From Escherichia phage Haito_Bas83: a stretch of DNA of 44,876 nucleotides. The DNA is taken from sequence record PQ850604.1, one strand, 5' to 3'. Of this stretch, positions 10,267-40,004 are shown one piece after another. The notes beneath the pieces were generated by a model that saw only the letters and a program-made list of their open reading frames with translations, did not search any database and was not told the origin of the DNA. A program made the translations under genes and the position numbers. The stretch's first letter is position 1. Each line of letters opens with the position of its first letter.

Positions 10267-10992
10267 ATGGGTTATCAACTTCCTAACGGGTCTAGCGTCC
10301 AGATTGGGTCCGTACTGGGCGACGGCATCGCTGTTACGGCAGCTACCAACGCCACCGCGTCGATCTCTGACCTCGCTACCGGTTGCGTTATTACCTGCGC
10401 GGAATCTCATGGTCTGGTTGTTGGTGATGTGGTTATGTTCACTAAAACCCCGTGGGTCCGTGCGCTAAACCGCGCGTTTATCGTTGGCGCAGTGTCTACC
10501 AACGATGTGACGCTGGCGCGCTTCGACTCCTCGGACGTCACCAAATATCCTACCGGTGCTTTTGCAGTAGGCACTCCGGGTGAAGTGGTGAAGGTGTCGA
10601 GCTTTATCGACTTCCCGTTTATCACCAACGTTGCCGTGTCGGGTGGCGACCAGCAGACGACTACCTTCCAGCCGTTGCAGGTTAACACCGCGATCAGCCT
10701 GAACACCACGAAAAACCCGTTGGTCCAGACTTACACCTTCACCCACGACGAAGAAGACCCGATCCGCCCAATCCTGGAAGACCTGGACGACACGCAGAAG
10801 ACCACCGTGATCAAGTTCACTAACCCAGCGGCAGCAAGCGGCAAAGGTGAAATTCGTATTTACCCGGCTAAGGTATCTTTCCAGAAGATTCCGTCCGCTG
10901 AAGTAAACAACGTTGAAACGGTACAATCCACTCTGACCATGCAGTCTGATATGGTTATCTACCGTAAGGATCTGGTCGAGGCATTGTCTTGA
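10267..10992 (+). CDS. major tail (tube) protein
   Basis: 241-aa ORF with RBS AGGAGC; directly upstream of the chaperone G/GT pair and tape measure; followed by a terminator. Confidence 0.6.
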   Translation: MGYQLPNGSSVQIGSVLGDGIAVTAATNATASISDLATGCVITCAESHGLVVGDVVMFTKTPWVRALNRAFIVGAVSTNDVTLARFDSSDVTKYPTGAFAVGTPGEVVKVSSFIDFPFITNVAVSGGDQQTTTFQPLQVNTAISLNTTKNPLVQTYTFTHDEEDPIRPILEDLDDTQKTTVIKFTNPAAASGKGEIRIYPAKVSFQKIPSAEVNNVETVQSTLTMQSDMVIYRKDLVEALS

Positions 10993-11022
10993 TTTGGTCG
11001 CTTAAATAGCGAGTGTTAATAT

Positions 11023-11046
11023 GGGGCCAGCACGGCCCCTTTTTTA
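11023..11046 (+). terminator. rho-independent terminator after major tail gene
   Basis: GGGGCC-AGCAC-GGCCCC plus TTTTTT. Confidence 0.6.
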
Positions 11047-11061
11047 TTGGAGAATATTACA

Positions 11062-11424
11062 ATGGCTAAAGCACCACTCTTCACACTTGACCCTAAGCCG
11101 ACCTTTAAGCTGCCGATTGAGATCCCGCGCCCTGGTGAGAACGAGCCGGGCAAGATGACCTTTACCGTCCGCCACCGCCCGATCGACGAGTTTTCGCAGA
11201 CCATGCAGGACACCGAGCGCAAGCTGTCGGAATATGACGACAATGACCCGGACGGCTTTAACGTTATGGTTGAGGCCATCATGCACGTCGCTGAAGGCTG
11301 GAATCTGCCAGACCAATTTAACGCTGAGAACGTCCGCCGCCTGGTAGTCAACTACCCGCGCGCGTTCGGCGTGTTCCACACCTCGTACTATCTCGAATTG
11401 ATGGGATTGCGTGAAAAAAACTAA
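11062..11424 (+). CDS. tail assembly chaperone (G-like)
   Basis: ATG at 11062 with RBS GGAGAA (the track ORF begins at a TTG at 11047); ends at slippery site A_AAA_AAC. Confidence 0.6.
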   Translation: MAKAPLFTLDPKPTFKLPIEIPRPGENEPGKMTFTVRHRPIDEFSQTMQDTERKLSEYDDNDPDGFNVMVEAIMHVAEGWNLPDQFNAENVRRLVVNYPRAFGVFHTSYYLELMGLREKN

Positions 11425-11738
11425 TTGAGGCGGCGCGACGCTTTTATGGCCCGCCGCCACCCTCCGAAGATGTAGCCGCAAGTTTATGGGGCGCGGCCCC
11501 CGAAGATGTTTGTCCGTCTGTTGCGCTATGGCCCGACAACGCGAAGATAGTCGCAGTCTTCACAGATTGCTCTACGCAATGGCGCACCGGATTCGGTGGG
11601 GCATACGGCATCGACTACGGCGTGCTGGAATGGCTATTTAAGATGCACGGCATCGAAAACGAGCAACGTGCATTTAAAGATATCAAGCTAATGGAGCGAA
11701 TCGCGCTTGATGAAATGGCGCAACAAAACCCCGCATAA
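11062..11738 (+). CDS. tail assembly chaperone GT-like fusion via programmed -1 frameshift
   Basis: A_AAA_AAC heptamer at 11415-11421 sits 1 nt before the G stop; the -1 frame stays open for 106 codons to TAA at 11736-11738 and encodes a T-like segment (WLFKMHGIENEQRAFKDIKLMERIAL); conserved lambda-like architecture. Confidence 0.55.
11415..11421 (+). promoter_or_regulatory. -1 ribosomal frameshift slippery heptamer
   Basis: A_AAA_AAC in X_XXY_YYZ form in the zero frame of G. Confidence 0.5.
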
Positions 11739-11740
11739 TG

Positions 11741-11925
11741 AAGCGGGACGGATCGGGACGTCCCGATTTGTCCCGTTTTGTCCCGCCACCTGCAAAACTG
11801 CATACCTACTCACTTTCATTGCATAAACTAAAAGCGGGACGAGCGGGACGTCCCGATCCGTCCCGCCCCTAAATGTGCATACCTATTCAGATTTCGTGCA
11901 TAAAACAAACGGGACAGAAAGCGGG
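11741..11925. repeat. tandem ~95-bp imperfect direct repeat with palindromic CGGGACGTCCCG core
   Basis: Copy 1 at 11741-11830 and copy 2 at 11834-11920 share GCGGGAC..CGGGACGTCCCGAT..GTCCCGCC..TGCATACCTA(C/T)TCA..TGCATAAA. Confidence 0.5.
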
Positions 11926-12065
11926 ACAAACATGGGGCGGGACAAAGCGGGACAGCACCCCGTCCCCGTCAGTGCTGCCGCGGGTTTTAGCCGATCGGGA
12001 CAAGCGGGACAAACCCCAGTCTTTCAGACTAGACGGGGGTCAATGGCCCCCCTCGTCTGAGACTG
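11910..12065. repeat. composite element copy A: GCGGGACA iteron array plus conserved long hairpin
   Basis: Direct CGGGACA/GCGGGACA repeats at 11910, 11921, 11937, 11947, 11995 and 12004, and a hairpin at 12017-12065; near-identical to 39629-39786. Confidence 0.6.
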
Positions 12066-12133
12066 AATAAGGTTTGTTTGAAATTCGCTGATACAATGTC
12101 AATCGGCAACTGCATAAAAAAGGGGACTGCATA

Positions 12134-14779
12134 ATGGCAGATCAAGCAGCAGGCATCACGCTAAAGGCGGATGTTGCACAAATCAGAACGGCGAATACGG
12201 TGCTGGACTCATTCGCGCAGAAGTCCGAGAACACCGAAAACAAGGTTAAGAAATTAAACGACACACTCGGCAACACGAAAAAGGTGACGGGTGACGCCGC
12301 GGGCGGAATGGGGAAGCTGGCAACTGAATCGCAGCGCGCCGCAGATGGCATGACGAAGCAGGAGCGACTTGCCAACCGCTTAGGCATGTCGACTAAAAAC
12401 CTGGGCTTTGCCTCACGTAACGCCGCATTTCAGTTACAGGATATTGCGGTCACGCTAGAGATGGGTATGCCGGTGCACCGCGTCATGATTCAGCAGTTAC
12501 CGCAGTTAACCGGGGCATTCGGAGGACTGGGTAATACGCTGCGTTATGTTGCTGGCTTTCTCGGTCCGGTAGGGATCGGCCTTGCTGCGGTAACGGCGAC
12601 GTTAGGTGTAGGCGTGGCGATTACGTCCCGCGCAGAAAACCAGGTAGCGGCGCTGAATAAGACGCTGGCGCTATCCGGTAATATCTCTGGCCTCACCGCT
12701 AACCAGATCCTGGTGCTGTCGGAGAACGCCGAACGCATGGGCGGGTCATTCAGCAAGACGCGTGACACAATTCAGGCACTGGCGGCAGCAGGTGTGAAAG
12801 CGGGTGCTGACTTCGGCGCACTGGCGAAAGTGGTGAACGACTTCGCGAAGGTGTCTAATCAGCCGATCGCGGACGTGGTGGAGTCCATCTCCAAATTGTC
12901 CAACGACCCGGTGGGCGGATTGCGCGCACTGGCGGACAAGTATCACGTCGTTACCGAGGCGCAGATCCAGCAGGTGCAATCCCTGGTGACGACGGGCCGC
13001 GAAACCGAAGCGGTGGCGTTGGCTAACAAAACAGCCGCGGCGTCGTTCACCAGCATGACCAACGAGATCAAGTCCAACATGGGTACGCTTGAGCGGTCAA
13101 TGAACGTCGTCACATCGGCAGCCAAATCTATGTGGGATGCCATCCTGGATGTGGGCCGCGCGCAGTCCTCGAATGAGTCCGAGATGAAAGCGCGTGAATC
13201 TTTGCAGCGCATGACAACGGCCTACTATGCCGAGATGAAAGCGGTAAACGCTGCCGGTGGGGTAATGACCGAGGCGCAGAAAGCACGAATTAACATGCTT
13301 TATAGCGAACTGGTCGCCCAGGAGAAAGTAGTAGCGTCACTCACCCTGCGCAACCGTGCTGAGCGTGACAACGCAAGCGCCGCGGACAAATCAGCGAAGG
13401 CGAACGAGGAGGCCAACCGCACCGCCCGCGACCGCGCCGCGTTCGAGAAGGAATTTGCCACCAACGCGCAGAAGCGCGCCGACGAGATCGCCCGCCTCAA
13501 TTTGCTGAATAAGCGCGGTGTGATTAACGAGAAAGAACTAGCCGAGGCGGTGAAGCAGGTCAACGAGCGCTACAAAGACCCCGCACCGAAGAAGGCGGCG
13601 GCTATTCGCGTGGATGCTGGTGTCAAAATGCTGGAGGTCGCACGGAGCGAACTGGCGCAGCTTAAGGAGTCCGGCAAGCAGATCGAGGCCAATGCGACAA
13701 CGCAGACCCGCACGCAGCGCGCACAGGCCGCGTTGAATAAGCTGGTGGCGGATAATGAGCAGATGGTCACAGCAAGCAAGGAGCGCACACTAACGGCAGC
13801 AGAAAAGCAGCAGATGGCGGAGTTCGAGGCGGTTAAAGCAGTACGCGAGCAGATCGTCGAAGAAGCCAAGTTGCTGGACGCGAAAGAGAAGCAGATCAAG
13901 GCACACGCCCAGGTCGAGGCATTCATCAAGAACCAGAACGCTGAGCTAAGGGCCACCGCTGCGGGCTATGCGCTTTCCACTCGCGAAGCGGCTAACCTGC
14001 GCGAAGAATTACAGCTAATTGACCGCCTTCAGCGTGTCGGCGCTAACGATACTGATATTGACAACGCGGTGTCTAAGCTGCGCGAAGTGCAGGAAGCACA
14101 GACCGGTGCTAACGCCTCGTTGTGGGATGGCTTCAGCCGCGGGCTTAAGGATAGCGTGGATGAAATGGGTAACGGCTACACGCAGATGACGTCACTCACA
14201 AAATTCACGTTCGGCGCTATGCAGGACACGATGAACAAGTTTTTCGAGACGGGCAAGCTGAGCGCGAAGGATATGGTTAAGTCCATCCTGAGCGAATTAA
14301 TCAAGCTGGCTACCTCGCAGGCGTTCAAATCCATCGTTAGCGCTTTCGGCGGTGACGGCGGCAAAAACGGATTGTTCGGCGCTATCTTCTCGGGCCTCAC
14401 TAAGAACGCAGACGGCGGAGCGTACGCAGGAGGCAATCTAGCGGCCTATTCCGGGCAAGTGGTAAGCCAGCCTACCTTTTTCAGTTATGGCGTTCAGGCG
14501 TTCGCTAAGGGCGCTGGATTGATGGGTGAGGCCGGACCCGAGGCCATCATGCCACTGAAGCGCGGGCCGGACGGGAAACTGGGCGTTGCCGCTGCCGGTG
14601 TTGGAGGGGGTGGGATGATTGTAACGACCAACGTGAACATGGGGACCGGTAAAACGGACACCAGTGTGAGCGGACCGGACCCACGCACCGCGCAGGCGTT
14701 CGGCAAGCAAATCACCGAGTCGGTCAAGGCTGAGATCGTGAAAGCGACGAAACCGGGTGGAGTACTTTACAAACGATGA
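12134..14779 (+). CDS. tail tape measure protein
   Basis: 881-aa helix-rich ORF downstream of G/GT with a Gly-rich C-terminal region; canonical position. Confidence 0.8.
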   Translation: MADQAAGITLKADVAQIRTANTVLDSFAQKSENTENKVKKLNDTLGNTKKVTGDAAGGMGKLATESQRAADGMTKQERLANRLGMSTKNLGFASRNAAFQLQDIAVTLEMGMPVHRVMIQQLPQLTGAFGGLGNTLRYVAGFLGPVGIGLAAVTATLGVGVAITSRAENQVAALNKTLALSGNISGLTANQILVLSENAERMGGSFSKTRDTIQALAAAGVKAGADFGALAKVVNDFAKVSNQPIADVVESISKLSNDPVGGLRALADKYHVVTEAQIQQVQSLVTTGRETEAVALANKTAAASFTSMTNEIKSNMGTLERSMNVVTSAAKSMWDAILDVGRAQSSNESEMKARESLQRMTTAYYAEMKAVNAAGGVMTEAQKARINMLYSELVAQEKVVASLTLRNRAERDNASAADKSAKANEEANRTARDRAAFEKEFATNAQKRADEIARLNLLNKRGVINEKELAEAVKQVNERYKDPAPKKAAAIRVDAGVKMLEVARSELAQLKESGKQIEANATTQTRTQRAQAALNKLVADNEQMVTASKERTLTAAEKQQMAEFEAVKAVREQIVEEAKLLDAKEKQIKAHAQVEAFIKNQNAELRATAAGYALSTREAANLREELQLIDRLQRVGANDTDIDNAVSKLREVQEAQTGANASLWDGFSRGLKDSVDEMGNGYTQMTSLTKFTFGAMQDTMNKFFETGKLSAKDMVKSILSELIKLATSQAFKSIVSAFGGDGGKNGLFGAIFSGLTKNADGGAYAGGNLAAYSGQVVSQPTFFSYGVQAFAKGAGLMGEAGPEAIMPLKRGPDGKLGVAAAGVGGGGMIVTTNVNMGTGKTDTSVSGPDPRTAQAFGKQITESVKAEIVKATKPGGVLYKR

Positions 14780-14815: not shown

Positions 14816-15415
14816 ATGGCGCAAGGTACAATCACACTAACGAACGGAAGTAAGACCGTCACGGGCGCGGGGACGGCGTTCCTGAGCGAGATCGGGAAGG
14901 TCCGCGTATTTGCCCGCATCGACGGCAACGACTACACCGGTAAAATCGCTGCATTCAACTCTGACACCGTCATCACCCTGGTGGATAACTGGGCCGGTCC
15001 GACAAAAGCCGGTGCAGCCTACGAGCTAATCGAAGCGCACGACCCGCGATCAAACGAATGGCCCTATTACTGGCACATGCAATTGCAGGGCGGCGGCGAC
15101 GTGCAATTGGCTTTCCGGTCGGAGGAATTGCAATTCGGTAACGGCTATGGTCAGAACATCGCAGACGGCCCGAACGCCGAGACGAAACAGTTCCCCGTGC
15201 AATTCATCGGACTGACTACGGACAAGTGGTGTGACCCTAAACTGGTGTACAACTTCCTTCGCGGGCACTTCGTCAAGCCGTTTGTCGTCACCGCGCCGGA
15301 TGGCGAAACAGGTTTATTCGTGGTCGAGCGTTCGAGCTTGTCGTACACTGACAACGGACACTACACGGCAACTGTATCAGCCACCCTTAAGACTGCTATT
15401 GGATTCGTAAGATGA
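14816..15415 (+). CDS. minor tail protein (lambda M position; distal tail protein candidate)
   Basis: 199 aa, first gene after the tape measure; N-terminus MAQGTITLTNGSKTVTGAGTAF matches the N-terminus of the side fiber at 22292. Confidence 0.45.
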   Translation: MAQGTITLTNGSKTVTGAGTAFLSEIGKVRVFARIDGNDYTGKIAAFNSDTVITLVDNWAGPTKAGAAYELIEAHDPRSNEWPYYWHMQLQGGGDVQLAFRSEELQFGNGYGQNIADGPNAETKQFPVQFIGLTTDKWCDPKLVYNFLRGHFVKPFVVTAPDGETGLFVVERSSLSYTDNGHYTATVSATLKTAIGFVR

Positions 15416-16200
15416 ATAAACTATATCGCGAGGCGACGCGCTTTGACCCATCGGGCCGCGTTCGCCTGATTCACATTGACGCGCAGGACGTGGAGCCGGG
15501 CGACGGCGCGATCGGCGCGGGCCACCACTATTTTCATTACTGCTTTATTCCGCATACTGCCGAAGATATTGCTGCCGCTGGTGGAGACGAGGACAAGCTG
15601 AAGCCAAAATCTATCTTCTTTGGCGGGCAGGAGTTCGAATTTTGGCCCTTCGATTTGTCCGGCCTCAACTTCTCCACATCAACGGCAGCAGAACCGCAGC
15701 TAACTATCGTCGATATTGGCGGGATTATTACCCGGCTATCGCTGAATCACGACCAGCTACTTGGCGCGAAGGTTGAAATCATAGACACGTTTGCTAAGTT
15801 CCTGGACAACGGGCCAGATCCAGACCCAACGCAAAAACGTGTACAGGAGTTTTACATCGACTCCCAGGTGGGCCGAAATCCGGGCAAACAAATCACCTTC
15901 GCATTATCCTCGCCCGCGGATATGGAGGGGCAAGTAGTCCCGCGCCGCCAAATCATGAACATGTGCGAATGGGCGCTCAATGGGAAGTACGCCAGCGGGG
16001 ACGGGTGCACGTGGAACCTTGCACAGCCAGGCATCAAGTATTATGACGAGCGCGGTAATGAAGTCATCGCGATGGATATGGACCGGTGCGGCGGCTGTTT
16101 GTCCGACTGTTATCTTCGATTTGGACAAGGGCTTGCAGATCCGAAAGCGGCGGTACTGGACTACGGCGGCTTTCCGGGGTCCAGATTAATTAAGGGGTAG
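15412..16200 (+). CDS. minor tail protein L-like
   Basis: 262 aa; C-terminal cysteine cluster CGGCLSDC consistent with the Fe-S site of lambda gpL-family proteins; gene order M-L-K-I-J. Confidence 0.6.
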   Translation: MNKLYREATRFDPSGRVRLIHIDAQDVEPGDGAIGAGHHYFHYCFIPHTAEDIAAAGGDEDKLKPKSIFFGGQEFEFWPFDLSGLNFSTSTAAEPQLTIVDIGGIITRLSLNHDQLLGAKVEIIDTFAKFLDNGPDPDPTQKRVQEFYIDSQVGRNPGKQITFALSSPADMEGQVVPRRQIMNMCEWALNGKYASGDGCTWNLAQPGIKYYDERGNEVIAMDMDRCGGCLSDCYLRFGQGLADPKAAVLDYGGFPGSRLIKG

Positions 16201-16202
16201 TC

Positions 16203-16943
16203 ATGTTAACGAAAAAGGTTAAGAGCGATATCGCCGCACACGTTGCGGCATGTCTGCCTGAAGAAGCGTGCGGCCTGGTCGTCATGGTGGGCCGTAAGCA
16301 AGTATTTATCCCGTGCCTGAACGTGTTCGAAGACCCGACCGGCGCGCGATCGCGTAAGGACGCGTTTACAATTAGTGATATGGCATGGATGGGCGCCGAG
16401 GATATTGGCGACGTCGTGCGCGTAGTCCACTCACATCCAGGTCAGCGGGAGTTAACCCCATCATTGGGCGACGTTAACGGATGCAACGGCAGCGGCATAG
16501 TGTGGACCATTACTAACGAGTACGGCGACTTTATCGAGATCGACCCTGAAGACCCACCACTGGTAGGTCGCCGATTTGTTCTCGGAATTACGGATTGCTA
16601 TGGCCTCGTCATGGACTGGCACAAAAAGCAGGGCGTGAATCTGCCTGACTTCCGCGTGCCGTACAACTGGTGGGAGATGGGCGAAAGCCTGTACATGGAT
16701 AACTGGTATGATGCGGGATTCAGGGAGTGCGCGGAGAATACGCCGGGGGCAATGGTCATCATGCAGATTAGCGCACCAGTGCCAAACCATGCTGGGATCT
16801 TCCTTCCGGGCAACCAACTACTACACCATATCTACGGCAGCCTGTCGAGCGTGGTCCCCTTCCGGGCAGGATTTTTCCGCGACAATGTGGTTAAATGGGT
16901 ACGTCATAAAGACTTACCTGGGGAAATCACAGAATGGCAATGA
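16203..16943 (+). CDS. tail assembly protein K-like (MPN/JAMM + NlpC/P60)
   Basis: HSHPGQRELTPSLGD JAMM-like motif and a downstream Cys/His region (DCYGLV, HAGIF); position before I and J. Confidence 0.65.
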   Translation: MLTKKVKSDIAAHVAACLPEEACGLVVMVGRKQVFIPCLNVFEDPTGARSRKDAFTISDMAWMGAEDIGDVVRVVHSHPGQRELTPSLGDVNGCNGSGIVWTITNEYGDFIEIDPEDPPLVGRRFVLGITDCYGLVMDWHKKQGVNLPDFRVPYNWWEMGESLYMDNWYDAGFRECAENTPGAMVIMQISAPVPNHAGIFLPGNQLLHHIYGSLSSVVPFRAGFFRDNVVKWVRHKDLPGEITEWQ

Positions 16944-17551
16944 CCACATTTAAATTGTACGGCGTCTTAGGACGTCGTTTTGGTAAAGTGCATAAGCTGG
17001 ACTGCTTCACACCTGGCGAGGGTATCACCGGCCTATGCGTGAAGTTGCCAGGCTTACAGGACTTTCTAATGTCGGCCCACCTGGAAAACATGATGTTCAA
17101 GGTGCGCAAGGGTAATCACACAATGACCGGCTACGACGAGTTGGGTGAGTTCCACGGCGACCGCGTAGTTACCATCGCGCCGGTTATGACTGGTGCTAAA
17201 AGCGGACTTGGACAATTGCTGGCTGGCGTAGCTATCGTGGTGGCGTCGTTCTACACTGGCGGGCTTGCCGCTGCCGCTTTCGGGGCTTCCGCTGCGACCG
17301 CCGCCGCTATCGGAACGGCGACGTTTTCGTTCGGTATGTCGCTTGCGCTGGGCGGCGCTATGCAATTGCTGTCACCGCAACCGAAAGGATTGCAGACACG
17401 GCAGGACGTGGATAACAAGGCGTCGTATGCGTTCGGCGGGCCGGTAAACACGACCGCGCAAGGCACAGCACTTGGTGTATTATGGGGAGAGCGTGAGATC
17501 GGCGGCGCTATTATTTCAGCCGGAATTGTAACCGAGGATTTGAACGAATGA
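16934..17551 (+). CDS. tail assembly protein I-like
   Basis: 205 aa with a Gly/Ala-rich hydrophobic segment; overlaps K and J as in lambda. Confidence 0.55.
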   Translation: MAMTTFKLYGVLGRRFGKVHKLDCFTPGEGITGLCVKLPGLQDFLMSAHLENMMFKVRKGNHTMTGYDELGEFHGDRVVTIAPVMTGAKSGLGQLLAGVAIVVASFYTGGLAAAAFGASAATAAAIGTATFSFGMSLALGGAMQLLSPQPKGLQTRQDVDNKASYAFGGPVNTTAQGTALGVLWGEREIGGAIISAGIVTEDLNE

Positions 17552-20500
17552 CGATTATCTACGACGTCACGGGCCATAAAGGCGGCGGTGGCAAACAGCA
17601 CACCCCACAGGAGACGCCTGATAGCCTGCATTCGCTGGCTAAAATCCGCATCTTGCTCGCACTGGGCGAGGGCGAATTTGAAGGCATTCCCGACCCTAAC
17701 GAATTACGGCAGCGTGTATACCTGGACGGCACACCGATCCAGAACGCCGACCTGTCGGATAACTTCCCCGGCGCGCGCGTGGAGTTCCGCCCCGGCACGC
17801 AGCACCAGGATGTGATTCACGGTTTTTCAGCGGTGGAAAGCGAGCAAACAGTAGGCGTAAAACTGGAACAGGGACAGCCGTGGGTCCGCCAGATTTCGGA
17901 CACCAGTCTGGACGCGGTGCGTATTCGAATCGGTATTCCGGCCCTGTACACTAACGAAGATAATGGCGACCTGGTGGGCGGGCGCATCGACTATAAAATC
18001 GTTGTGTATACCGATAACGCCGATCCGCGCGAGTTTACATTCGCTGCCGTTGGTAAAACAATGTCGCTGTACGAGCGGGACCACCGCATCGAATTACCGC
18101 CGAACGTTAACACCGGCTGGCGCGTGGAGGTGCACCGCACAACGGCAGACTCCACATCGGCGAAAGTGGTCAACGATATCCAGGTACAATCCATTACTGA
18201 GATTATCGACGCCCGCCTGCGTTACCCGCTAACCGCGCTGTTGTTCGTGGAGTTCGATGCTAAGGCGTTCCAGAACATCCCGCGTGTGTCCATCAAGTGC
18301 AAAGGCCGCAAAGTGCTAGTACCGAACAACTATGACCCCGTGAATCATACCTATTCTGGTAACTGGGACGGCACATTTAAACGCGCCTGGACGGATAACC
18401 CGGCATGGCACTGGTACGATATTTGTATTACTGAGCGCTTCGGCCTCGGTCGTCGTGTCAAGCCACAAATGCTAAACCGTTACGCGCTCTACCAGATTGC
18501 GCAGCGCTGCGATCAGATGGTCAGTGACGGCAACGGCGGACAAGAAATCCGCTTTAAGAATGATATGTACATTCAGTCGCAGACCGACGCCTGGACCGTG
18601 CTGAAGGATTTAGCGGCAATCTTTGCCGGTATGACCTGGTGGGGCAACCAGATGTTGAATATCGTCAGTGACCAGCCGGTCGCCGCGGTATCGCATACTA
18701 TCACCAACGCCTCGGTTATTGATGGTCGATTCGACTACGCATCGGGGAGCCAGAAAACTCGGTATTCCACGTTCTCGGTAGCCTACGGCAACCCGAAAAA
18801 CCATTACGAGGACGCCATCGCAACGGGCCAGCGTGTCGAACTGGTGCGCCGCCATAAGATTAACCGCCTTGATATCACGGCGATCGGCTGTACGCGTGAA
18901 TCTGAAGCGCAACGCCGCGGGCACTGGGCGCTAATCTCCAACCAGCTTGACCAACAAGTTAGCTTCAAGGTTGGCATGGAGGGGTTATTCTTTATTCCGG
19001 GGAGCGTAGTTGCGATCGCAGATACTAACATTTCTGGCGGCTTCGAGACACGCGGCGGACGTCTGTTGTCTGACCCGGGCACGCGCACCGTGCTGAACAC
19101 AGACAGCGAAATCACGTTCCGCCCTGGTGATAAATTCCTGGTGCGCACCAATAGCGGTAATGTGGAGACTCGCGAGATTGCCAGCGTCAACGGCAACCAG
19201 GTCACACTAAAAACCGCACTGGACGCCGACCCTATTCCAGACCAGCCGTTTTGCGTGGATGGCGATGATATCCAGTTGCAGAAGTTCCGCATCACCGACC
19301 TGGAATATGACGACGCTACCAGCACTTTTTCGGTGCGCGGGATTGAGTACAACGATAGCAAATATGATGCCGTTGATAATGGCGCGCGTCTTGATCCGGG
19401 TATATTCACGCAAGTGCCAGACGGCGTAATGAAGGGACCGGAATCCGTGACCATCACCCCGTCGCAGATTTCATCACAAGGCCAGCTAATCACTAACGTG
19501 GATATTGTATTCCCACCGGTGAAGGATGCCGTTGTGTACGAAATCCAGTGGCGACGTACCAGCTTGCAGAATCTGGAAGTACAGTGGGGCAACGACTGGG
19601 TGAACATCCCCCGCACGGCGTCGAACGGCGCGCACATCCCGAACGTGTTTTCGGGTAACTACCAGGCACGCGTCCGCGCTATCGGTATGGGCGAGATTTC
19701 ATCCCCGTGGGTGTCATCCGCCATCACGCCGGTGGAGGGTCGTCTTGGTGGGCTTAACGCGCCTATCATCACCAACGCGATTTCGGGCCTTCACCAAATT
19801 TTGTGGAAGTGGAACCACAACAACGCCGCGACGGATATTTCGTATACCGAGCTTGAAGTGCGCAAGCTGGGAGAAACGGAATGGAAATTCCTAACCAACG
19901 TCCCATATCCTGGGTCGGACTATGCACAAACGTCGCTGGAGTTCGGGATCTATCAGCAGTTGCGCGCGCGTGTAGCGGATAAAATCGGCAACCTGTCAGA
20001 CTGGTCCGATCCGTTCGACGGGCAGGTGAGTGACAAAGTTGACGAGTACATGCAGGGGCTTGATGACGAGTTCTTGACTTCCGAGGACGGTAAACACTTC
20101 CAGGAAGCAATCGACACCATTCCGCAAGGCATCTATGAGTCAATGCTTACGGACGCCCAGCAGTTATTCAACGCCCGCGCCGAGTATAAAGGGATTTATG
20201 CGGAAATTACGGTGGCGTATAACGTGGCGGCGGATGCTCACGAAGCCGTAGCGCAACTGGAGACGTTGATCGGCACGCGCCTTGACGATGCGGAAGCGTC
20301 AATCCACACGTTGCAGACAGCGCAAAGCACGCATGAGCAAGCATTCGCCCAGTACCAACAAACTGTTGCCGCTAAGTTCGGGGAGCAGGAAGCTGCCATC
20401 CAGCAGGTACAAACGGCAACGGCAGACGTAGCTGGCGCGCTGGCGGAGTATAAGACCCAGGTCGCGGCACAGTTCGGACAGCAGTCCGCAGCTATCGAGC

Positions 20501-22291: not shown

Positions 22292-24070
22292 ATGGCAGCG
22301 GGTACACTATCCGTAACGAATAACAGCAAGGCGGTTGTGGGCGTCGGCACAACGCTTACCGCGCTGAAGGCTGGCGACTTCCTGTCGCTGGTAGTGGGGC
22401 AAGTCCCTTACACTGTCGCTATTGCATCCGTAGAAAGCGACACCGCGCTTACGCTGGTGCTGCCGTTCGATGGCCCAACGGCAACCGGCCTCGCATGGGA
22501 TAGCGTGGCGCGCGATACCATGTCCCTTGCAACGATGGGTGTAACCGTCCAGGCGCAGAAAGCGCTCCGTATGCTTATCGCGGACGAAAACAACTGGCGT
22601 GCAATCTTCGGCGACGCTGAGGAGATCACTGTCACGCTCCCGAACGGGCAAGTAATGCAGGGTATGTCATGGGGCTATCTGTCGCAATTGCTCAAGCAAG
22701 TTGACCCCGTAGAGATGCGCAACCTGCAACAACAAGCCGCCGCATCGGAAGCCGCCGCGCAGGGATACCGGAACGAGGCAGAAGGCTTCAAGACTGATAC
22801 GCAGGCGATCCACGACGCCACCGATCAGATTAAGACTGATACGCAGGCGATCCACGACGCCACCAACACCATCAAGACGCAGACCAACCAGATTAAGACT
22901 GATACGCAGGCCATCAAGGACGAGACTGACCAGATTAAGACGGATACTGGCGCTATTCGCGATCAGGCCAATACAGCGAAGACGGACGCGCAAGCCGCCC
23001 GTGATGCCGCGCGGGGATACCGGAACGAGGCCGAACAATTCAAGAATGAGATCGACCCGTCGAAATTGCTGGCAAAGGCCAGCAACCTTAGCGACGTTGC
23101 AGACGTTGCAGAAGCGCGCGACAACTTAGGTATCGGGCCGACGGATACACTTAATATTGGTGGCCTGGTAACGTCCGGCGGTATCTCCGCGGGTCGAAAC
23201 ACGTGGGACGGGTCAAACTGGGGTGGCCAGGCGATTAACATCTCGCTAGCCATCCTATCACCAGACGGAAACTCAACACCCGGCTTATATGTGCGCAAAA
23301 GCAACGGCGAAAACGGATATGCGACTGAATGGCTGTATTATGAGAACACGAACGCCTGGGCGACGAACGCGCGAGTTGTCAGCTATCAATTCCGTTCCCC
23401 GAAGGGGCCTATGGGTTATAGTCAGTTGTGGTCTGAAGCTGCGGTACGAGTGGACCCGTACAACGGGCAGCTTAACGCGGAAAACTATCAGTCGTTAGTC
23501 GCGGGGGCGGCTGCGACGCAAGGCCACGGATTTGCGGGCGGTGTTTCGTTCGGGCTTATGACCACCGGCAGCAACAACTGGCCCCGGGCGCAGATCTCGA
23601 TCGGCACACAGGACCGTGACGCCGCGGGGAATATGGGGCAGCAGATGCATTTTCGCTTTGATGACCAGGGGCGGATCTCTTACAACGGGCCGCAAGGCAC
23701 GGGGTCATTCCAGCAAGTGCCCGCATCGGACCGCAACCTGAAGCATGATATTGCCGATGATGCCAGCAGCACCGCCTACGACAACATCAAGGCGATGCGA
23801 TTCCGCACGTTCATATTCAACAACGACGAACAAGAACGGCAGCGCCGCGGGATTATTGCGCAGGAAGTGGAAGAAATCGACCCGCTGTATGTGAAGCACC
23901 GAGAGTATAACAACCATGAGTTAAACGGGCCATTGATGCACCAGCTTGAACTGGACACAACGCCGCTGCTACTCGACACTATGCGCGCGTTGCAGGATAC
24001 GATTAAGCAGGTGGAGGAGTTGAAGGCCGAGATCGCAGCTATGAAACAAGTGGAGGAGTTGAAGAAATAA
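22292..24070 (+). CDS. side tail fiber with C-terminal intramolecular chaperone (peptidase S74-like) domain
   Basis: Start MAAGTLSVTN with RBS GAGGA (track ORF starts 27 nt earlier); tandem 14-aa repeats (TDTQAIHDATDQIK); C-terminal ...SDRNLKHDIAD...MRFRTFIFNNDEQERQRRGIIAQEVEEIDPLYV... resembles the autocleaving chaperone domain of endosialidase and T5 L-shaped fibers. Confidence 0.7.
   Translation: MAAGTLSVTNNSKAVVGVGTTLTALKAGDFLSLVVGQVPYTVAIASVESDTALTLVLPFDGPTATGLAWDSVARDTMSLATMGVTVQAQKALRMLIADENNWRAIFGDAEEITVTLPNGQVMQGMSWGYLSQLLKQVDPVEMRNLQQQAAASEAAAQGYRNEAEGFKTDTQAIHDATDQIKTDTQAIHDATNTIKTQTNQIKTDTQAIKDETDQIKTDTGAIRDQANTAKTDAQAARDAARGYRNEAEQFKNEIDPSKLLAKASNLSDVADVAEARDNLGIGPTDTLNIGGLVTSGGISAGRNTWDGSNWGGQAINISLAILSPDGNSTPGLYVRKSNGENGYATEWLYYENTNAWATNARVVSYQFRSPKGPMGYSQLWSEAAVRVDPYNGQLNAENYQSLVAGAAATQGHGFAGGVSFGLMTTGSNNWPRAQISIGTQDRDAAGNMGQQMHFRFDDQGRISYNGPQGTGSFQQVPASDRNLKHDIADDASSTAYDNIKAMRFRTFIFNNDEQERQRRGIIAQEVEEIDPLYVKHREYNNHELNGPLMHQLELDTTPLLLDTMRALQDTIKQVEELKAEIAAMKQVEELKK
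22791..22979 (+). repeat. in-frame tandem ~42-bp repeats within the fiber gene
   Basis: AAGACTGATACGCAGGCGATCCACGACGCCACC... repeated about four times with variation. Confidence 0.6.
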
Positions 24071-33132: not shown

Positions 33133-33924
33133 TTAACGGCGGCGACGTTTACGTGGTGCTTCGTCTTCGTCGTCGTCGTCGTCCTCATCTTCGTCATCGC
33201 GGGACTTGCGACGCTTGCGAGGTTTTTCGTCTTCCTCGTCTTCGTCATCGTCATCACGACGCTTGGATTTCTTGGACTTGCGCGGCTTATCATCTTCGTC
33301 ATCGTCATCACGACGTTTGGACTTCTTAGCCTTGCGCGGTGCTTCATCTTCGTCATCGTCGTCCAGGTCGTCATCGGAACAAGAAGACCCGCCGCCACCG
33401 AAGGAGTCACCATCGTCACGGAAGCGAAGACCCATCAAACCCGCACCTAGACCTTTGCCGTTGGTGTTGTTCCACGCCCAAATATCCAGGGACACGTTGC
33501 AATAACAACCGGAATAGATTTCCTGGCCTTCGATCTCGTCGCCGTTGATGGTAAGGCCCTGTTCGGTCTGCTTCTCGCCCAGTGACGTTTGGATGTTAGG
33601 CTGTTTGAACGATTTGGCGTTGATGTACAACATGCCTTCAAATTCTTCGGTTACTTCGTCGCGCTCGTCACCGTCACGAACTGCGCATTCCTTAGAATCC
33701 TGGGCGTAGTGGCGGTCCATCCACTTATCGGCGTTCTTCTCGGATTTCAGCTTGTCGGTAAGCACTGCGCGCGCTGCCGCTTCCACTTTGTCCACCTGCG
33801 GATCTTCTTTATCAAGAAGAATCACGGCACGGTATGCCGGTTTTTGTCCATCCTGTTTAGGGGTATCACGTTCCCAAATTTTCAGGAAGCATACACGTAC
33901 ATTTTTCAGGTTGACTTTAGCCAT
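33133..33924 (-). CDS. ssDNA-binding / annealing protein-like (DUF2815-like, tentative) with repetitive charged C-terminal tail
   Basis: Start MAKVNLKNVRVCF with GAGGA RBS; C-terminal ~100 aa are alternating acidic/basic repeats (DDDDEDEAPRKAKKSKRR x3); adjacent to a Cas4-like nuclease. Confidence 0.4.
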   Translation of the reverse strand: MAKVNLKNVRVCFLKIWERDTPKQDGQKPAYRAVILLDKEDPQVDKVEAAARAVLTDKLKSEKNADKWMDRHYAQDSKECAVRDGDERDEVTEEFEGMLYINAKSFKQPNIQTSLGEKQTEQGLTINGDEIEGQEIYSGCYCNVSLDIWAWNNTNGKGLGAGLMGLRFRDDGDSFGGGGSSCSDDDLDDDDEDEAPRKAKKSKRRDDDDEDDKPRKSKKSKRRDDDDEDEEDEKPRKRRKSRDDEDEDDDDDEDEAPRKRRRR

Positions 33925-36128: not shown

Positions 36129-36650
36129 TTAATCTTCTAATTCGAAATACGTTTCTACGATTTCTTTTAAATCTTTATGGAAGTCTTCGACGTCGTCATC
36201 TTCCAGCTTGGCGACGGATTTAATTTCGAACGCTTCCAGCAGATCATCAAATTCGTCGTTTGCGTCGTCGTCATCGCCGCCTGCGATAATCGCGGCATAC
36301 TGCTTGATTTCGTCGCGCATCTCTTTCAGAGGATCGGCTTCTTTCTTGCCTTTACCTTTCGCCGGTGCTTTTTTAGACTTCGCAGGTGCTTCTTCCTCGT
36401 CCGCGTCGTCGTCTTCTTCTTCTACGGCTTCTTTCTTAGCCTTGCCCTTTGCAGGCGCTTTTTTGGACTTCGCCGGTGCTTCATCTTCAGCGTCGTCATC
36501 TTCGACTACTTCTTCTTTTGCCTTGCTCTTAGCCGGGGCTTTCTTCGCTTCCTGTTTACCAACGGCAGCGCCAGCAGTTTCGTAATGCTTAGCGATGGTT
36601 TCCAGTGCTACTACGCCGCGAGTGATCAGGTTTACGATTTGCTCAAACAT
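36129..36650 (-). CDS. lysine-rich repeat protein with acidic C-terminus (first gene of leftward early operon)
   Basis: RBS GGAGAT; three copies of (D/E)EAPAKSKKAPAKGK(A/G)KKE repeats; C-terminal DDDDANDEFDDLLEAF. Confidence 0.5.
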   Translation of the reverse strand: MFEQIVNLITRGVVALETIAKHYETAGAAVGKQEAKKAPAKSKAKEEVVEDDDAEDEAPAKSKKAPAKGKAKKEAVEEEDDDADEEEAPAKSKKAPAKGKGKKEADPLKEMRDEIKQYAAIIAGGDDDDANDEFDDLLEAFEIKSVAKLEDDDVEDFHKDLKEIVETYFELED

Positions 36651-36917: not shown

Positions 36918-37247
36918 ATGCATATCAACGACGCAATCGAAATGTTAACTAAGACCGTTAGTTGTGAGACAAGCCGGTCCTGGGCTTATACCGATGCCGT
37001 TGGTGCGGCGTTATTTGAAATCGAACGCCTGCGCAGTGTCGAAAAAGAATTGCGCGCCAAGCTGGAATTACTCAACGGTACGGCAGCAAGCAAGCTGCAA
37101 AAACACAATGAAGAAATGGAAGAATACAAAAAGCAGGTTATCCGTTTACGCGACGAGGGCAAGTCCTGGGCGATGATTGCCGAGTTGACCGGAATTAATC
37201 AGAGCACCGTGCGCTCCTGGGTACGCAATAATAAAACTTCTAAGTAA
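36918..37247 (+). CDS. HTH DNA-binding protein (putative transcriptional regulator)
   Basis: 109 aa; helix-rich with C-terminal HTH-like KSWAMIAELTGINQSTVRSW; first gene of the rightward operon. Confidence 0.5.
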   Translation: MHINDAIEMLTKTVSCETSRSWAYTDAVGAALFEIERLRSVEKELRAKLELLNGTAASKLQKHNEEMEEYKKQVIRLRDEGKSWAMIAELTGINQSTVRSWVRNNKTSK

Positions 37248-39522: not shown

Positions 39523-39628
39523 ATTTTGCGCGCATTGGTTGCCAAATTGAGTGTTTTTAGCTGGTCGCATTGGTTGCCGTGTAGTGTAAATATAGTGAAT
39601 AGTTATGCAGTTTTATTGCATAAAATAA

Positions 39629-39786
39629 GCGGGACAAAAAGCGGGACAGACAGGGGGCGGGACAAAGCGGGACAGCACCCCTTGTCCCGCCCGGATGGCG
39701 CGGCTTTCAGAGGAGCGGGACAGGCGGGACAAACCCCAGTCTTTCAGACTAGACGGGGGTCAGTTGGCCCCCCTCGTCTGAGACTG
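39629..39786. repeat. composite element copy B: GCGGGACA iteron array plus conserved long hairpin
   Basis: GCGGGACA at 39629, 39641, 39657, 39667, 39715 and 39724, inverted TGTCCCGC at 39683, hairpin at 39737-39786; near-identical to 11910-12065. Confidence 0.6.
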
Positions 39787-39945
39787 CATAAAATCCGGGA
39801 TTGCATAATGTACGGCAGCATGACGTGAATTGCGGTCGTCGACGAACTAGGCAACCAATGCGAGTTGTATTATGGGTGGTGAAAAATGCAGTTTGCAGTT
39901 ACAGCAGATAGCGATCAACTTTTTCATACGCATGATTAATATTGG

Positions 39946-39974
39946 TTGCATTCAGCCTGGCACCCTGCTAGATT
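39946..39974 (+). promoter_or_regulatory. putative promoter upstream of the 40005 gene block
   Basis: TTGCAT (inside ATTGGTTGCA), 17-bp spacer, TAGATT, followed by a second ATTGGTTGCA. Confidence 0.35.
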
Positions 39975-40004
39975 GGTTGCACCCCAACGAGAGGACCAAA
40001 CAAA

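Follow-up and report, generated by a model that had tools for sequence, protein, structure and literature searches.

The window analysed here is a 44,876-nucleotide stretch of DNA from Escherichia phage Haito_Bas83 (PQ850604.1), a Dhillonvirus with 99.5% identity to Escherichia phage Bas85. Its tail assembly chaperone gene, which contains a −1 frameshift at A_AAA_AAC (11415-11421) and ends with a TAA stop codon at 11736-11738, is separated from the tape measure gene by a block of repeats termed region A (Table 1). Region A is a partial copy of a second element, region B, which begins at the stop codon of the helicase-primase gene. The two regions have in common an iteron array, two further direct iterons and a long imperfect hairpin, and are ~86% identical over a 195-bp core. 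The core of region B has no palindromic clusters upstream of it. In region A, the core is preceded by two tandem units, and as stated in the first-pass annotation of this DNA, these units are found only in copy A and the two composite elements therefore differ.

Table 1. Features of region A, region B and their neighbouring genes in the window
Feature	Position	Strand	Description
Tail assembly chaperone G/GT gene	11062-11738	+	Phage_TAC_4 domain, DUF1799 extension; left boundary of region A
Region A	11739-12133		Between tail chaperone and tape measure genes; units form the upstream extension
Unit 1 hexamer cluster	11743-11786	none	CGGGAC at 11744, 11754 (+) and 11760, 11770, 11780 (−); >><<<; 34% AT
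Unit 1 box pair	11797-11835	+	TGCATACCTACTCA (11799-11812) and TGCATAAACTAAAA (11820-11833); starts 21 bp apart; ARG matrix 7.1 / −1.2 bits
Unit 2 hexamer cluster	11834-11866	none	CGGGAC at 11835, 11844 (+) and 11850, 11860 (−); >><<; 21% AT
Unit 2 box pair	11874-11912	+	TGCATACCTATTCA (11876-11889) and TGCATAAAACAAAC (11897-11910); starts 21 bp apart; ARG matrix 9.5 / −13.9 bits
Core iteron array, common to region B	11910-11967	+	Direct CGGGAC at 11910, 11922, 11938, 11948; degenerate inverted GTCCCC at 11962
Two further direct CGGGAC iterons of the common core	11996-12010	+	
Long imperfect hairpin, common to region B	12017-12065	+	Fold z −3.3 and −4.4
Extended −10-like TGATACAAT	12089-12097	+	37 nt upstream of tape measure gene start; consensus resemblance only
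Tape measure protein gene	12134-14779	+	Right boundary of region A
HTH_23 protein gene (109 aa)	36918-37247	+	Upstream of helicase-primase gene, in replication operon
Helicase-primase gene	37258-39522	+	AEP prim-pol ~1-200, Cys/His (zinc-type) motif, RepA-like AAA_25 357-531, C-terminal winged helix ~662-740
Region B	39523-40004		Starts at helicase-primase stop codon
Region B box pair	39594-39632	+	TGAATAGTTATGCA, then TGCATAAAATAAGC 21 bp on; ARG matrix 15.3 / −5.7 bits
Region B core	39630-39786	+	CGGGAC at 39630, 39642, 39658, 39668, inverted at 39684, then at 39716, 39725; hairpin 39737-39786

Each unit opens with a GC-rich cluster of four to five CGGGAC hexamers in head-to-head order (>><<) and continues with two AT-rich boxes that lie 21 bp apart. 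The sequence features named in the first-pass annotation were all found where it had placed them, including GCGGGAC (starts at 11743, 11834 and 11843), the inverted GTCCCG copies that form the minus-strand hexamers of Table 1, and, in the box segments, TGCATACCTA(C/T)TCA (11799 and 11876) and TGCATAA (11820 and 11897). The two palindromes, the 16-nt ATCGGGACGTCCCGAT (11752-11767) and CGGGACGTCCCG (11844-11855), lie inside the hexamer clusters of units 1 and 2, respectively, and their cores are made of the same hexamer that builds the downstream iterons, a relationship that had also been noted. The cluster of unit 1 contains one more inverted hexamer than the pattern seen at this position in most relatives (>><<). 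As single-stranded DNA this cluster folds at −15 kcal/mol (z −3.7), and the cluster of unit 2 at −14.7 kcal/mol (z −4.2). In addition, an inverted repeat of 23 nt, without a mismatch, connects the two units (11743-11765 with 11844-11866).

The tandem repeat itself is real, although its period is 77-91 bp with indels between the copies, and not the ~95 bp first proposed: the hexamer clusters recur after 90-91 bp and the box segments after 77 bp, and unit 1 is longer than unit 2 by one GTCCCG and its spacer. Alignment of the units gives 69 matches in 76 ungapped columns, plus 28 gap columns, with a score of 31 compared to −72 ± 12 (maximum −19) in 2000 shuffles. When all adjacent 93/87-nt windows of the genome were scanned (mean −61, sd 14), only the unit locus and a coding repeat at 36.3 kb were outliers. 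Tandem Repeats Finder at a minimum score of 30 did not call the unit repeat, which was assessed by the gapped alignment and genome-wide control in its place. The array that follows the units (11910-11968) amounts to another copy of the hexamer cluster, the third and a fuller one. In total, region A carries 15 hexamers (within 11744-12010) and region B seven; GCGGGAC occurs 24 times in the window compared to 8.8 expected, and 16 of these 24 copies are within the two regions. Coding readings of the open reading frames at 11738-11872 and 11873-12070 were rejected, where the ATG at 11738 reads TAACG in six relatives and indels of 1, 10 and 11 nt among relatives shift the frame. The two units are non-coding.

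Iteron origins contain several short, mostly direct repeats that recur roughly once per helical turn; an AT-rich segment lies next to these, and the initiator gene is adjacent. The hexamers of region A start 9-16 bp apart in the clusters and array and 6 bp apart at the head-to-head junctions, with larger gaps between clusters, which agrees with this spacing. The segments at 11787-11833 and 11867-11909 are 64-65% AT, compared to 46% for the genome and 78% for the equivalent part of region B, and they interleave with the GC-rich clusters (21-34% AT) in an origin-like manner. Region B adjoins the gene of the putative initiator, whereas region A lies ~17 kb from the helicase-primase gene across the window ends, if the DNA is circular, or ~25.5 kb in the other direction. 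GC skew tracks the direction of transcription, with no feature at 11.7 kb, and located no origin. A search of a plasmid collection and of complete E. coli genomes found no related sequence.

The hexamer clusters may instead work at the level of RNA or transcription. As terminators or attenuators they would cut read-through from the chaperone genes, and the tape measure and distal tail genes would be transcribed anew from the promoter-like TGATACAAT. Five terminator-like sites are called in 10900-12300, where 1.9 are expected, and four of these overlap or adjoin the clusters, on both strands; the palindrome of unit 1 is also labelled a “putative transcriptional terminator” in the vB_EcoS_WFI record. 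However, the T-runs fall within the repeat array and not behind a closed stem (calls at 11754-11775 on the plus strand and at 11855-11835, 11765-11744 and 11749-11728 on the minus strand, with tails that belong to the array), and region B gives no terminator call with the same hexamers. Downstream, the −10-like core CTGATACAAT is invariant in 15 of 15 sequences, in favour of this reading. This site was not called by a promoter scan that requires a −35 element, and a scan for sigma-70 promoters returned nothing canonical in region B and a single weak site upstream of region A. Transcription signals also bracket oriR of the Bacillus phage SPP1 (PMC6316719). No Rfam family matched the clusters: with the covariance models of Rfam 15, two miRNA models were the only ones to match, and at 21-22 bits they fell short of their gathering scores (77-180). 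In addition, the stems consist of the very hexamer that co-varies with a protein domain in relatives, as described below, and termination could coexist with initiator binding and need not replace it. We consider it improbable that terminators are what the clusters are for.

The protein most likely to bind the hexamers is the helicase-primase, through its C-terminal winged helix. The N-terminus of this protein has an AEP prim-pol fold (6zp9, E 1.3e-5), the helicase domain matches Pfam AAA_25, a RepA-like family, and the C-terminus (nt ~39241-39477) is predicted to form a winged helix with pLDDT of 75-89. All top Foldseek matches of the C-terminus are winged-helix DNA binders, with weak E-values, the best being 0.013. 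A PDB sequence search and NCBIfam returned no matches to the helicase-primase, and a protein search with the C-terminal 175 amino acids alone found nothing, while the full-length query succeeded. In relatives, the helicase-primase gene is directly followed by the same layout of a box pair, iterons and a hairpin, and the hexamer is lineage-specific (CGGGACA, GTGGCA, GGGGAGA, CCGACA, CGGACAA or AGGGATA). Two relatives with different hexamers (L079 and L088) are 98% identical in the helicase, 91% in the linker and 42% in the winged helix; for two with a common iteron (L079 and L080) the same values are 96, 95 and 99%. Divergence of the winged helix accompanies that of the hexamer, and the remainder of the helicase-primase stays 96-98% identical. 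The C-terminus of the primase was one of two candidate binders named in the first-pass annotation, and it is strongly favoured by this co-variation, which points to the helicase-primase as the iteron-binding initiator.

The other candidate, the 109-aa HTH protein, fared differently. Its HTH region is invariant between phages with CGGGAC and phages with GTGGCA iterons (L055), and GRNsp27, with its origin laid out in the same way, does not encode the protein, so that it does not appear to be the determinant of iteron specificity. These observations also bear on whether a dimeric transcription factor, for instance this HTH protein, uses the palindromes as operators to control late gene expression and not replication. 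Dimeric regulators typically use palindromic half-sites, the HTH gene is located in the replication operon, and in iteron plasmids inverted half-iterons act as operators for Rep dimers. However, a different motif, ATTGGTTGC, tracks the HTH protein among relatives and is absent from region A, and we find an operator role very hard to credit. The palindromes had been read in the first-pass annotation as dimeric binding sites for the factor that binds the downstream iterons; a >><< arrangement is an equally good candidate for a head-to-head loading or double-hexamer site of a helicase that has its own origin-binding domain.

The second half of each unit, the TGCATACCTAYTCA...TGCATAAA segment, was not recognised in the first-pass annotation as a module of its own. 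The box pair is kept across lineages that differ in their iterons, and it is a separate and older module. The pair in unit 2 aligns with that of region B, and the pair in unit 1 is a diverged copy of the region B pair. TGMAT-N16-TGMAT occurs three times in the window (11799, 11876 and 39596), all within regions A and B, compared to 0.46 expected. The 21-bp distance between box starts is that of ArgR operators, in which two 18-bp boxes are separated by 3 bp (PMC6640053, PMC4381063), and the ARG box consensus of E. coli operators is TNTGAATWWWWATTCANW (PMC4865122). We scored the boxes with an ARG position weight matrix that was built from only 16 boxes, taken from eight MG1655 operators, and scored against itself. 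With this matrix, pairs in real operators score 25.7-41.1 bits and homologous pairs in Cornell-like relatives 17.7-25.8 bits, while 1 Mb of random sequence contains no match of at least 15 bits. The first box of region B is the best ARG-like box of the window. The pair resembles an ArgR operator strongly in relatives and weakly in the window.

It has to be asked, then, whether the box pairs of the units are working ArgR operators that recruit the host arginine repressor to bend the DNA. Their spacing is canonical, TGMAT-N4-ATKCA falls inside the natural ARG box repertoire of the eight MG1655 operators, and the Cornell-like pairs score higher than anything in the random sequence. The unit boxes themselves score below the range of real operators (Table 1) and have C at central positions 9 and 10, and near P1 loxP an ARG-like box with a 16/18 match was not bound by ArgR (PMC2409434). 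Together with the small, self-scored matrix, this makes functional ArgR operators in the units quite unlikely.

Comparison with related phages, proposed in the first-pass annotation as a check, showed that the units keep their architecture in each of the 14 Dhillonvirus loci studied and in about 149 of the 158 matching phage records. The gap between the chaperone and tape measure genes is 357-394 nt in the 14 Dhillonvirus loci, with 11-14 hexamers. Among 30 phages at a greater distance, it is −1 to 13 nt in 29 and 51 nt in the remaining one (L030). The eiAU table implies an 871-bp gap at this junction. A sister lineage (L135) has one unit and the core, while Dhillonvirus has two units. This distribution shows region A as an insertion between the two genes that took place in the ancestor of Dhillonvirus and the sister lineage, with a later tandem duplication of the unit in Dhillonvirus. 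Orthologous copies (A with A and B with B) have an identity of 0.88, higher than the 0.82-0.84 between the A and B paralogues, and the copies have therefore been kept independently. The arm of the hairpin occurs twice in each Dhillonvirus contig, except for two contigs with a truncation or mismatch. Across the genus the arms hardly vary, in contrast to a hypervariable loop, and the sister lineage shows one compensatory A>G / T>C change. Cornell-like relatives have one element only, and region A is therefore not a general requirement of this type of replication. The helicase-primase loci of Kagunavirus and Jerseyvirus (L051-L053) contain no comparable iteron cluster or box pair, which confines the layout to the branch of Dhillonvirus and the Cornell-like phages.

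The units may also be an evolutionary leftover, in which a fragment of the origin was copied into the chaperone-tape measure junction, and slippage, or recombination among the repeats, then amplified part of it. In that case the units would be neutral, with selection acting only on the core, the hairpin or the tape measure promoter. The core segment (11910-12072) is 92% identical to relatives and the unit segment (11741-11909) 77%, which is about equal to the third codon positions of the flanking genes (70-82%); constraint is therefore seen for the architecture of the units only and not for their sequence. Single hexamers are missing in several relatives, and in unit 2 of six relatives an inverted AGCACCCC spacer takes the place of the inner left hexamer. 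Unit number varies between the sister lineage and Dhillonvirus, an extra hexamer is present in the window, L014 and L018, and the same junction has taken up an unrelated minus-strand open reading frame in the sister lineage. Neutral drift is harder to reconcile with the retention of the >><< and box architecture in 14 of 14 Dhillonvirus loci and the sister lineage despite ~20% divergence, and with the second boxes (TGCATAAA), which are 92-93% conserved. In addition, ~170 bp of dead DNA in the packed late operon of a headful-packaging lytic phage should be deleted. A leftover is the most serious of these alternatives and is, in our view, unlikely.

We judge it reasonably probable that the units form an accessory array for initiator binding within a second origin-like site, and that they can be compared to SPP1 oriR or the crr region of phage P4. 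Each unit would repeat the left half of the replication origin of the phage, with >><< initiator-binding hexamers about one helical turn apart and then AT-rich boxes, and region A would be a second, origin-derived element placed between tail genes. The origin reading draws among other things on the presence of the hexamer in the element directly 3′ of the helicase-primase gene and on the co-variation of winged helix and hexamer. The sequence comparisons show this co-variation as well as the anatomy, conservation and insertion history of the element; initiator binding and an effect on replication are what we infer. The winged helix of the AEP-primase/RepA-like helicase is proposed to bind the hexamers, and the palindromic pairs could seat two protein assemblies in opposite orientations. 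With 15 hexamers compared to seven in region B, and with palindromic pairs, region A would therefore be a high-occupancy site for the initiator. It likely acts in cis during replication, either as a second loading site or origin, or as a distal site that, being tightly bound, assists or diverts replication begun at region B, as has been proposed for SPP1 oriR, through fork stalling, or is known for P4 crr. A pac or partition site was dropped by inference: the terminase is of the P22/Sf6 type, for which pac is expected in the small terminase gene, and there are no par genes.

A bolder extension combines both modules. ArgR could serve as a host architectural factor at the origin of Cornell-like Guernseyvirinae, Dhillonvirus and intermediates, with origin specificity provided by a swappable winged helix, and region A could be an amplified distal initiator trap, fork barrier or second loading site that controls the switch from circles to concatemers. 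This is speculative and rather unlikely as a whole; if true, it would tie phage replication to the arginine status of the host and provide an E. coli counterpart of SPP1 oriR. ArgR at a phage origin is a possibility raised by the ARG-box-like pair and was not described in the literature searched.

Dhillonviruses, which include HK578, SO-1, the BASEL phages Bas84 and Bas85 and many therapeutic-candidate coliphages, are without a mapped origin. A literature search for origins or iterons of HK578, SO-1 and Dhillonvirus returned no analysis of these regions and no Dhillonvirus binding or replication data. The model proposed here, in which the helicase-primase is the putative initiator through a modular winged helix, CGGGAC hexamers are its sites and the tail-operon element is the amplified one of two, is cheap to test. 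It also bears on defence systems that respond to origin hairpins or to the initiation of replication, as OLD escapers of HK578 map to the helicase-primase operon (bioRxiv 10.64898/2026.07.10.737580). The co-variation of winged helix and iteron could be used as a specificity code for engineering orthogonal phage replicons. If region A is a fork barrier or second origin, it would be a tractable E. coli phage counterpart of SPP1 oriR, and this would account for a 395-bp non-coding block being tolerated at the one point where tail genes usually abut.

Several known systems combine similar elements. The origins of R6K, pPS10 and F and the >><< cores of SV40 and papillomavirus contain helically phased direct repeats beside an AT-rich segment, and the palindromes of such plasmids and viruses are inverted recognition units at which dimers bind or head-to-head double hexamers nucleate. 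The proteins of these systems are not homologous to the one here, and the palindromes described here are only in the distal copy and not in the initiator promoter. In phage P4, crr lies kilobases from ori, contains two ~120 bp direct repeats that carry ori iterons, and is needed in cis. Region A is likewise distal, with tandem repeats that each carry origin iterons. The P4 alpha protein combines primase and helicase, and its C-terminal winged helix is the origin-binding domain (PMC2777425). The primase of alpha is of the DnaG type and its helicase belongs to SF3, in contrast to the AEP prim-pol and AAA_25 domains found here, so the helicase-primase of the window is not of the alpha family and only the winged-helix fold class is common to both. 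Another such system is pRN1, which encodes an AEP primase/helicase/C-terminal winged-helix protein with an essential origin stem-loop directly 3′ of the gene; this stem-loop is conserved, varies in its loop and sequence, and has similar counterparts in some bacteriophages (PMC4234260). In both cases a multidomain prim-pol/helicase/winged-helix gene is followed by a stem-loop, but pRN1 has an SF3 helicase, no identified iterons and a single origin, whereas in the window the hairpin comes after iterons and a box pair, and there are two copies of the element.

Both loci already carry a repeat-region annotation in GenBank GQ502199 (Sodalis phage SO-1), under the names “region A” and “region B”, with direct, inverted and palindromic repeats, mutual similarity and a “possible ...” function. 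This is annotation only, and the part of its note that could be read does not mention the tandem units, the link to the winged helix or the insertion history. A parallel for two such regions is SPP1, a lytic, headful-packaging Bacillus siphovirus of ~44 kb in which two distant origin-like regions, oriL and oriR, contain the same direct repeats as well as an AT-rich segment and are bound by one origin-binding protein; fork stalling at oriR has been proposed to trigger the theta-to-sigma (concatemer) switch (PMC6316719, PMC3485210). SPP1 differs in that its initiator gp38 binds the origin as a protein of its own and acts together with a loader and a DnaB-type helicase, whereas here the winged helix is fused to an AEP primase and a RepA-like helicase, so that the domain content (AEP prim-pol, AAA_25 and winged helix) departs from that of gp38-40, compared by their published description. 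Furthermore, oriR lies near head genes with morons and region A at the chaperone-tape measure junction, and tandem palindromic >><< clusters are not described for oriR in reviews (PMC6316719, PMC3485210). The window nevertheless has in common with SPP1 a layout of two distant regions that share repeats (PMC6316719), and in both phages one element is in or beside the (here putative) initiator gene while the other breaks a conserved order of late morphogenesis genes.

The 395-bp non-coding stretch between the tail chaperone and tape measure genes, region A, holds the tandem repeat. A nucleotide search with 801 bp around the repeat matched 158 phage records, nearly all from Dhillonvirus, with Escherichia phage RuthEpting_Bas85 the best match (99.5%). 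In the GenBank record of Sodalis phage SO-1 the equivalent stretch is already marked "region A" and the stretch 3′ of the helicase-primase gene "region B"; the region A note, as excerpted, mentions direct, inverted and palindromic repeats, similarity in sequence to region B, and "possible ...". The repeats themselves had been noticed by the SO-1 annotators, and a literature search found no paper analysing either region.

The motifs named in the first-pass annotation all lie where it placed them, and its repeat holds up against shuffled controls: units 1 and 2, the two copies at the upstream end of region A, give an alignment of 76 ungapped columns, 69 of them identities, plus 28 gap columns, which scores 31 versus -72 ± 12 for shuffles. 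The proposed period of ~95 bp needs revision, as the offset is 90-91 bp between the hexamer clusters and 77 bp between the box segments, two values that differ because unit 1 has one extra GTCCCG. Tandem Repeats Finder did not call the two-unit repeat. An adjacent-window scan of the whole genome singled out just two loci, the present one and a coding repeat at 36.3 kb.

Each unit joins a GC-rich, head-to-head cluster of CGGGAC hexamers to a segment of 64-65% AT. Hexamers within clusters are spaced 9-10 bp apart, with a 6-bp junction that gives the palindrome CGGGACGTCCCG, while the AT segment carries two boxes whose starts lie exactly 21 bp apart. 3′ of unit 2 follows the core, common to region B, with four direct hexamers and a degenerate inverted copy, then a spacer, two further hexamers and a hairpin. 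The array after unit 2 is in effect a third cluster copy, giving region A the layout cluster-box-cluster-box-cluster. As first annotated, the units are confined to region A: region B holds a single box pair and a single array, without upstream palindromic clusters, and 7 hexamers versus 15 in region A (nine from the units). Other motifs recur in both regions, among them TGCATAA, with 8 of the window's 13 sites. The (A/T)CGGCA(G/A)C motif, at a similar distance 3′ of the hairpin in each, also occurs in relatives whose iterons differ, ~45-60 nt downstream of their hairpins (for example TCGGCAAC, ACGGCAGCA and CACGGCAGCA) and could be a priming or start site. In region A the tape measure gene starts at the final ATG of CTGCATAAAA-N7/8-TGCATAATG; in region B that ATG opens just a 6-codon ORF.

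Coordinates of features in the window and, where a locus is named, in relatives
Feature	Position	Detail
Intrinsic terminator (strong)	11023-11039	GGGGCC-AGCAC-GGCCCC then T6; directly 3′ of major tail protein gene, upstream of chaperone genes
Tail assembly chaperone, left of region A	11062-11424	Phage_TAC_4 domain
Chaperone -1 frameshift	11415-11421	A_AAA_AAC
Chaperone DUF1799 extension	end at 11738	
Region A	11739-12133	
Unit 1 hexamer cluster (starts)	11744, 11754 / 11760, 11770, 11780	>><<<
Unit 1 boxes		TGCATACCTACTCA + TGCATAAAC
Unit 2 hexamer cluster (starts)	11835, 11844 / 11850, 11860	>><<
Unit 2 boxes		TGCATACCTATTCA + TGCATAAAA
Core hairpin, region A	12017-12065	~49 nt
(A/T)CGGCA(G/A)C	12105-12112; 39813-39821	regions A; B
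CTGCATAAAA-N7/8-TGCATAATG	12111-12136; 39785-39810	regions A; B
Tape measure gene, right of region A	12134-14779	
Coding tandem repeats	36335-36503; 33239-33360; 22788-22878	periods 90, 54, 42 bp; first inside minus-strand ORF 36129-36650
HTH_23 protein	36918-37247	109 aa
ATTGGTTGC sites	6152/6166, 25288/25299, 27203/27220, 30149/30161, 33980/33996, 39534/39569, 39851, 39941/39972, 40682, 43212/43235	
ARG-like pair, L050	18063-18101	
ARG-like pairs, L084, L088, L089, L090		~30-70 nt 3′ of helicase-primase stop
Minus-strand ORF, L135 (IMGVR_UViG_3300045988_050407)	1812-2192	126 aa, between chaperone gene and region A

Helicase-primase relatives of 43-69% identity have the same layout directly 3′ of the gene, in the order box pair, direct iterons, one or two inverted iterons, spacer, two iterons and hairpin. 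The layout of region B and these relatives resembles that of pRN1, where an origin with a conserved stem-loop 3′ of a multifunctional primase-helicase gene was shown experimentally, in a paper that noted a similar arrangement for some phages (PMC4234260). The hexamer is lineage-specific: CGGGACA in Dhillonvirus and L054/L071, GTGGCA in L055, GGGGAGA in GRNsp27, L079 and L080, CCGACA in L084, CGGACAA in L088 and L089, and AGGGATA in L090 (L-numbers and GRNsp27 denote loci of relatives).

The helicase-primase comprises an N-terminal AEP prim-pol fold (model pLDDT 86; best PDB match S-2L PrimPol 6zp9, E 1.3e-5), a Cys/His (zinc-type) motif, an AAA_25 RepA-like helicase and a C-terminal domain of ~80 residues, predicted to form a helix-helix-helix-beta hairpin (pLDDT 75-89). 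Every PDB match of this last domain is a DNA binder of the winged-helix type (MarR family, ScpB, histone H1, ORC), none reaching E 0.001. Decisive for the hexamer reader is the co-variation of the winged helix with the iteron. Identities across helicase part, linker and winged helix are 98, 91 and 42% between L079 (GGGGAGA) and L088 (CGGACAA), 96, 79 and 51% between L079 and L084 (CCGACA), and 96, 95 and 99% between L079 and L080, which have a common iteron. Both the primase C-terminus and the HTH_23 protein had been put forward as binders, and the co-variation favours the former. The HTH region of the latter does not vary between phages whose iteron is CGGGAC and those with GTGGCA, and GRNsp27 has no homologue; reading the palindromes as operators for this protein is disfavoured. 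These comparisons point to the winged helix of the helicase-primase as the likely reader of the CGGGAC hexamers.

In L079, L080, L084, L088 and L090 the winged-helix module (the last ~95 codons) has apparently been swapped together with the downstream iterons, the rest being 96-98% identical, which looks like cassette-style exchange of origin specificity. A separate motif, ATTGGTTGC, recurs in the window, mostly paired 11-35 bp apart (23 matches with at most one mismatch versus 13 expected). Copies lie on both sides of the region B core but none in region A of the window. The motif also adjoins region B in L054, L055 and L071 and region A in L135; L071 and L135 come from a single additional phage with a region B close to that of L054. 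The HTH of the HTH_23 protein is invariant between L054 and L055, the two motif-bearing lineages compared, so protein and motif may be a regulator/operator pair. GRNsp27, without the protein, has TGTTGGCTG in place of the motif.

The box pair is kept across lineages with differing iterons and winged helices (for example TGAATAGTTATGCA-GAAAAAG-TGAATAGTTATGC in L084, L088 and L090), and its reader would therefore be a factor distinct from the winged helix. The window has three occurrences of TGMAT-N16-TGMAT, all in regions A and B, versus 0.46 expected. Its 18+3+18 design and half-sites match the E. coli ArgR operator (consensus TNTGAATWWWWATTCANW, PMC4865122; design, PMC6640053, PMC4381063). 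On an ARG position weight matrix derived from eight MG1655 arg and car promoters, using the best box pair in each, real ArgR operators score 25.7-41.1 bits, pairs of Cornell-like phages 17.7-25.8, the first box of region B 15.3, and the unit boxes 7.1 and 9.5, with poor second boxes; 1 Mb of random sequence gave no match of at least 15. The Cornell-like scores suggest ArgR as a possible host factor at a phage origin. As a lead, ArgR is reasonable for the ancestral origin and weak for the units. A 16/18 match to the ARG consensus near P1 loxP does not bind ArgR (PMC2409434). In Cornell-like Salmonella and metagenomic phages, a near-canonical ARG pair, TGTGAATAGTTATGCAGA-AAA-AGTGAATAGTTATGC, lies between the helicase-primase gene and the iterons.

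Of 30 more distant phages that encode a homologous chaperone, 29 have a gap of -1 to 13 nt to the tape measure gene and one, L030, has 51 nt; in Dhillonvirus the gap is 357-394 nt, with 11-14 hexamers, at all 14 loci. Region A is also present in a sister lineage (contig 050407; helicase-primase ~68% identical, chaperone 59%), where it consists of one >>><< cluster, one box pair, the core and the hairpin, the last with a compensatory A>G / T>C change. GRNsp27 has one element only. The tight junctions of the distant phages and the single-unit region A of the sister lineage indicate that an origin-derived element with an upstream palindromic cluster entered the chaperone-tape measure junction before the two lineages split, and that the unit was duplicated later, in Dhillonvirus. 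The sister-lineage region A sits behind an unrelated minus-strand ORF, which marks the junction as a probable insertion hot spot in this phage group. In Edwardsiella phage eiAU, the published gene table leaves 871 bp between the tape measure gene (15288-17990) and a gp16-like chaperone ORF (18862-19188) (PMC3025963); the cause may be another insertion at this junction or a start called in the wrong place.

Similarity is higher between orthologous copies (0.88 for A-A and for B-B) than between paralogous ones (A-B, 0.82-0.84), and therefore regions A and B have been maintained separately. Identity to relatives is 92% in the region A core and 77% in the unit segment, against 70-82% at third codon positions of neighbouring genes. 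From this comparison selection is evident on the core and hairpin, and in the units the architecture alone is visibly conserved. The synonymous-like divergence of the units fits a rival reading, that they are a neutral relic of duplication. Another rival reading takes the palindromic clusters as part of a transcription terminator and promoter module: four of the five terminator-like sites of a scan lie on or adjoin the clusters, TGATACAAT at 12089 is invariant, and the WFI record annotates a terminator at the cluster site. These two readings and that of HTH operators are not all mutually exclusive.

We favour the units as a putative accessory cis-acting replication site, on the strength of the paired hexamers and of precedents in SPP1 and P4; they may act as a second origin, fork barrier or enhancer, in no ranked order. 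The units supply nine hexamers as head-to-head pairs alternating with AT-rich segments. Such a site could seat oppositely oriented assemblies of a helicase with its own origin-binding domain, and the amplified hexamer site would also hold the initiator tightly. The crr of P4 has two direct repeats with origin iterons and is needed in cis, a second precedent for region A beside the closest functional one, SPP1, a phage of similar size and packaging type. SPP1 has oriL within its initiator gene and oriR among the genes of the late morphogenesis cluster; gp38 binds the two, and a proposed role of oriR is to trigger the theta-to-sigma switch by stalling forks (PMC6316719, PMC3485210).

New here are the make-up of a unit, the history of insertion and later duplication, the likely assignment of the winged helix as specificity determinant, the probable exclusion of the HTH protein as iteron binder, and the finding that a conserved box pair resembles ARG boxes. 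Iteron origins with an accessory copy at a distance are already known as a kind of element; compared with the known examples, Haito_Bas83 differs in its proteins and in the >><< tandem layout.
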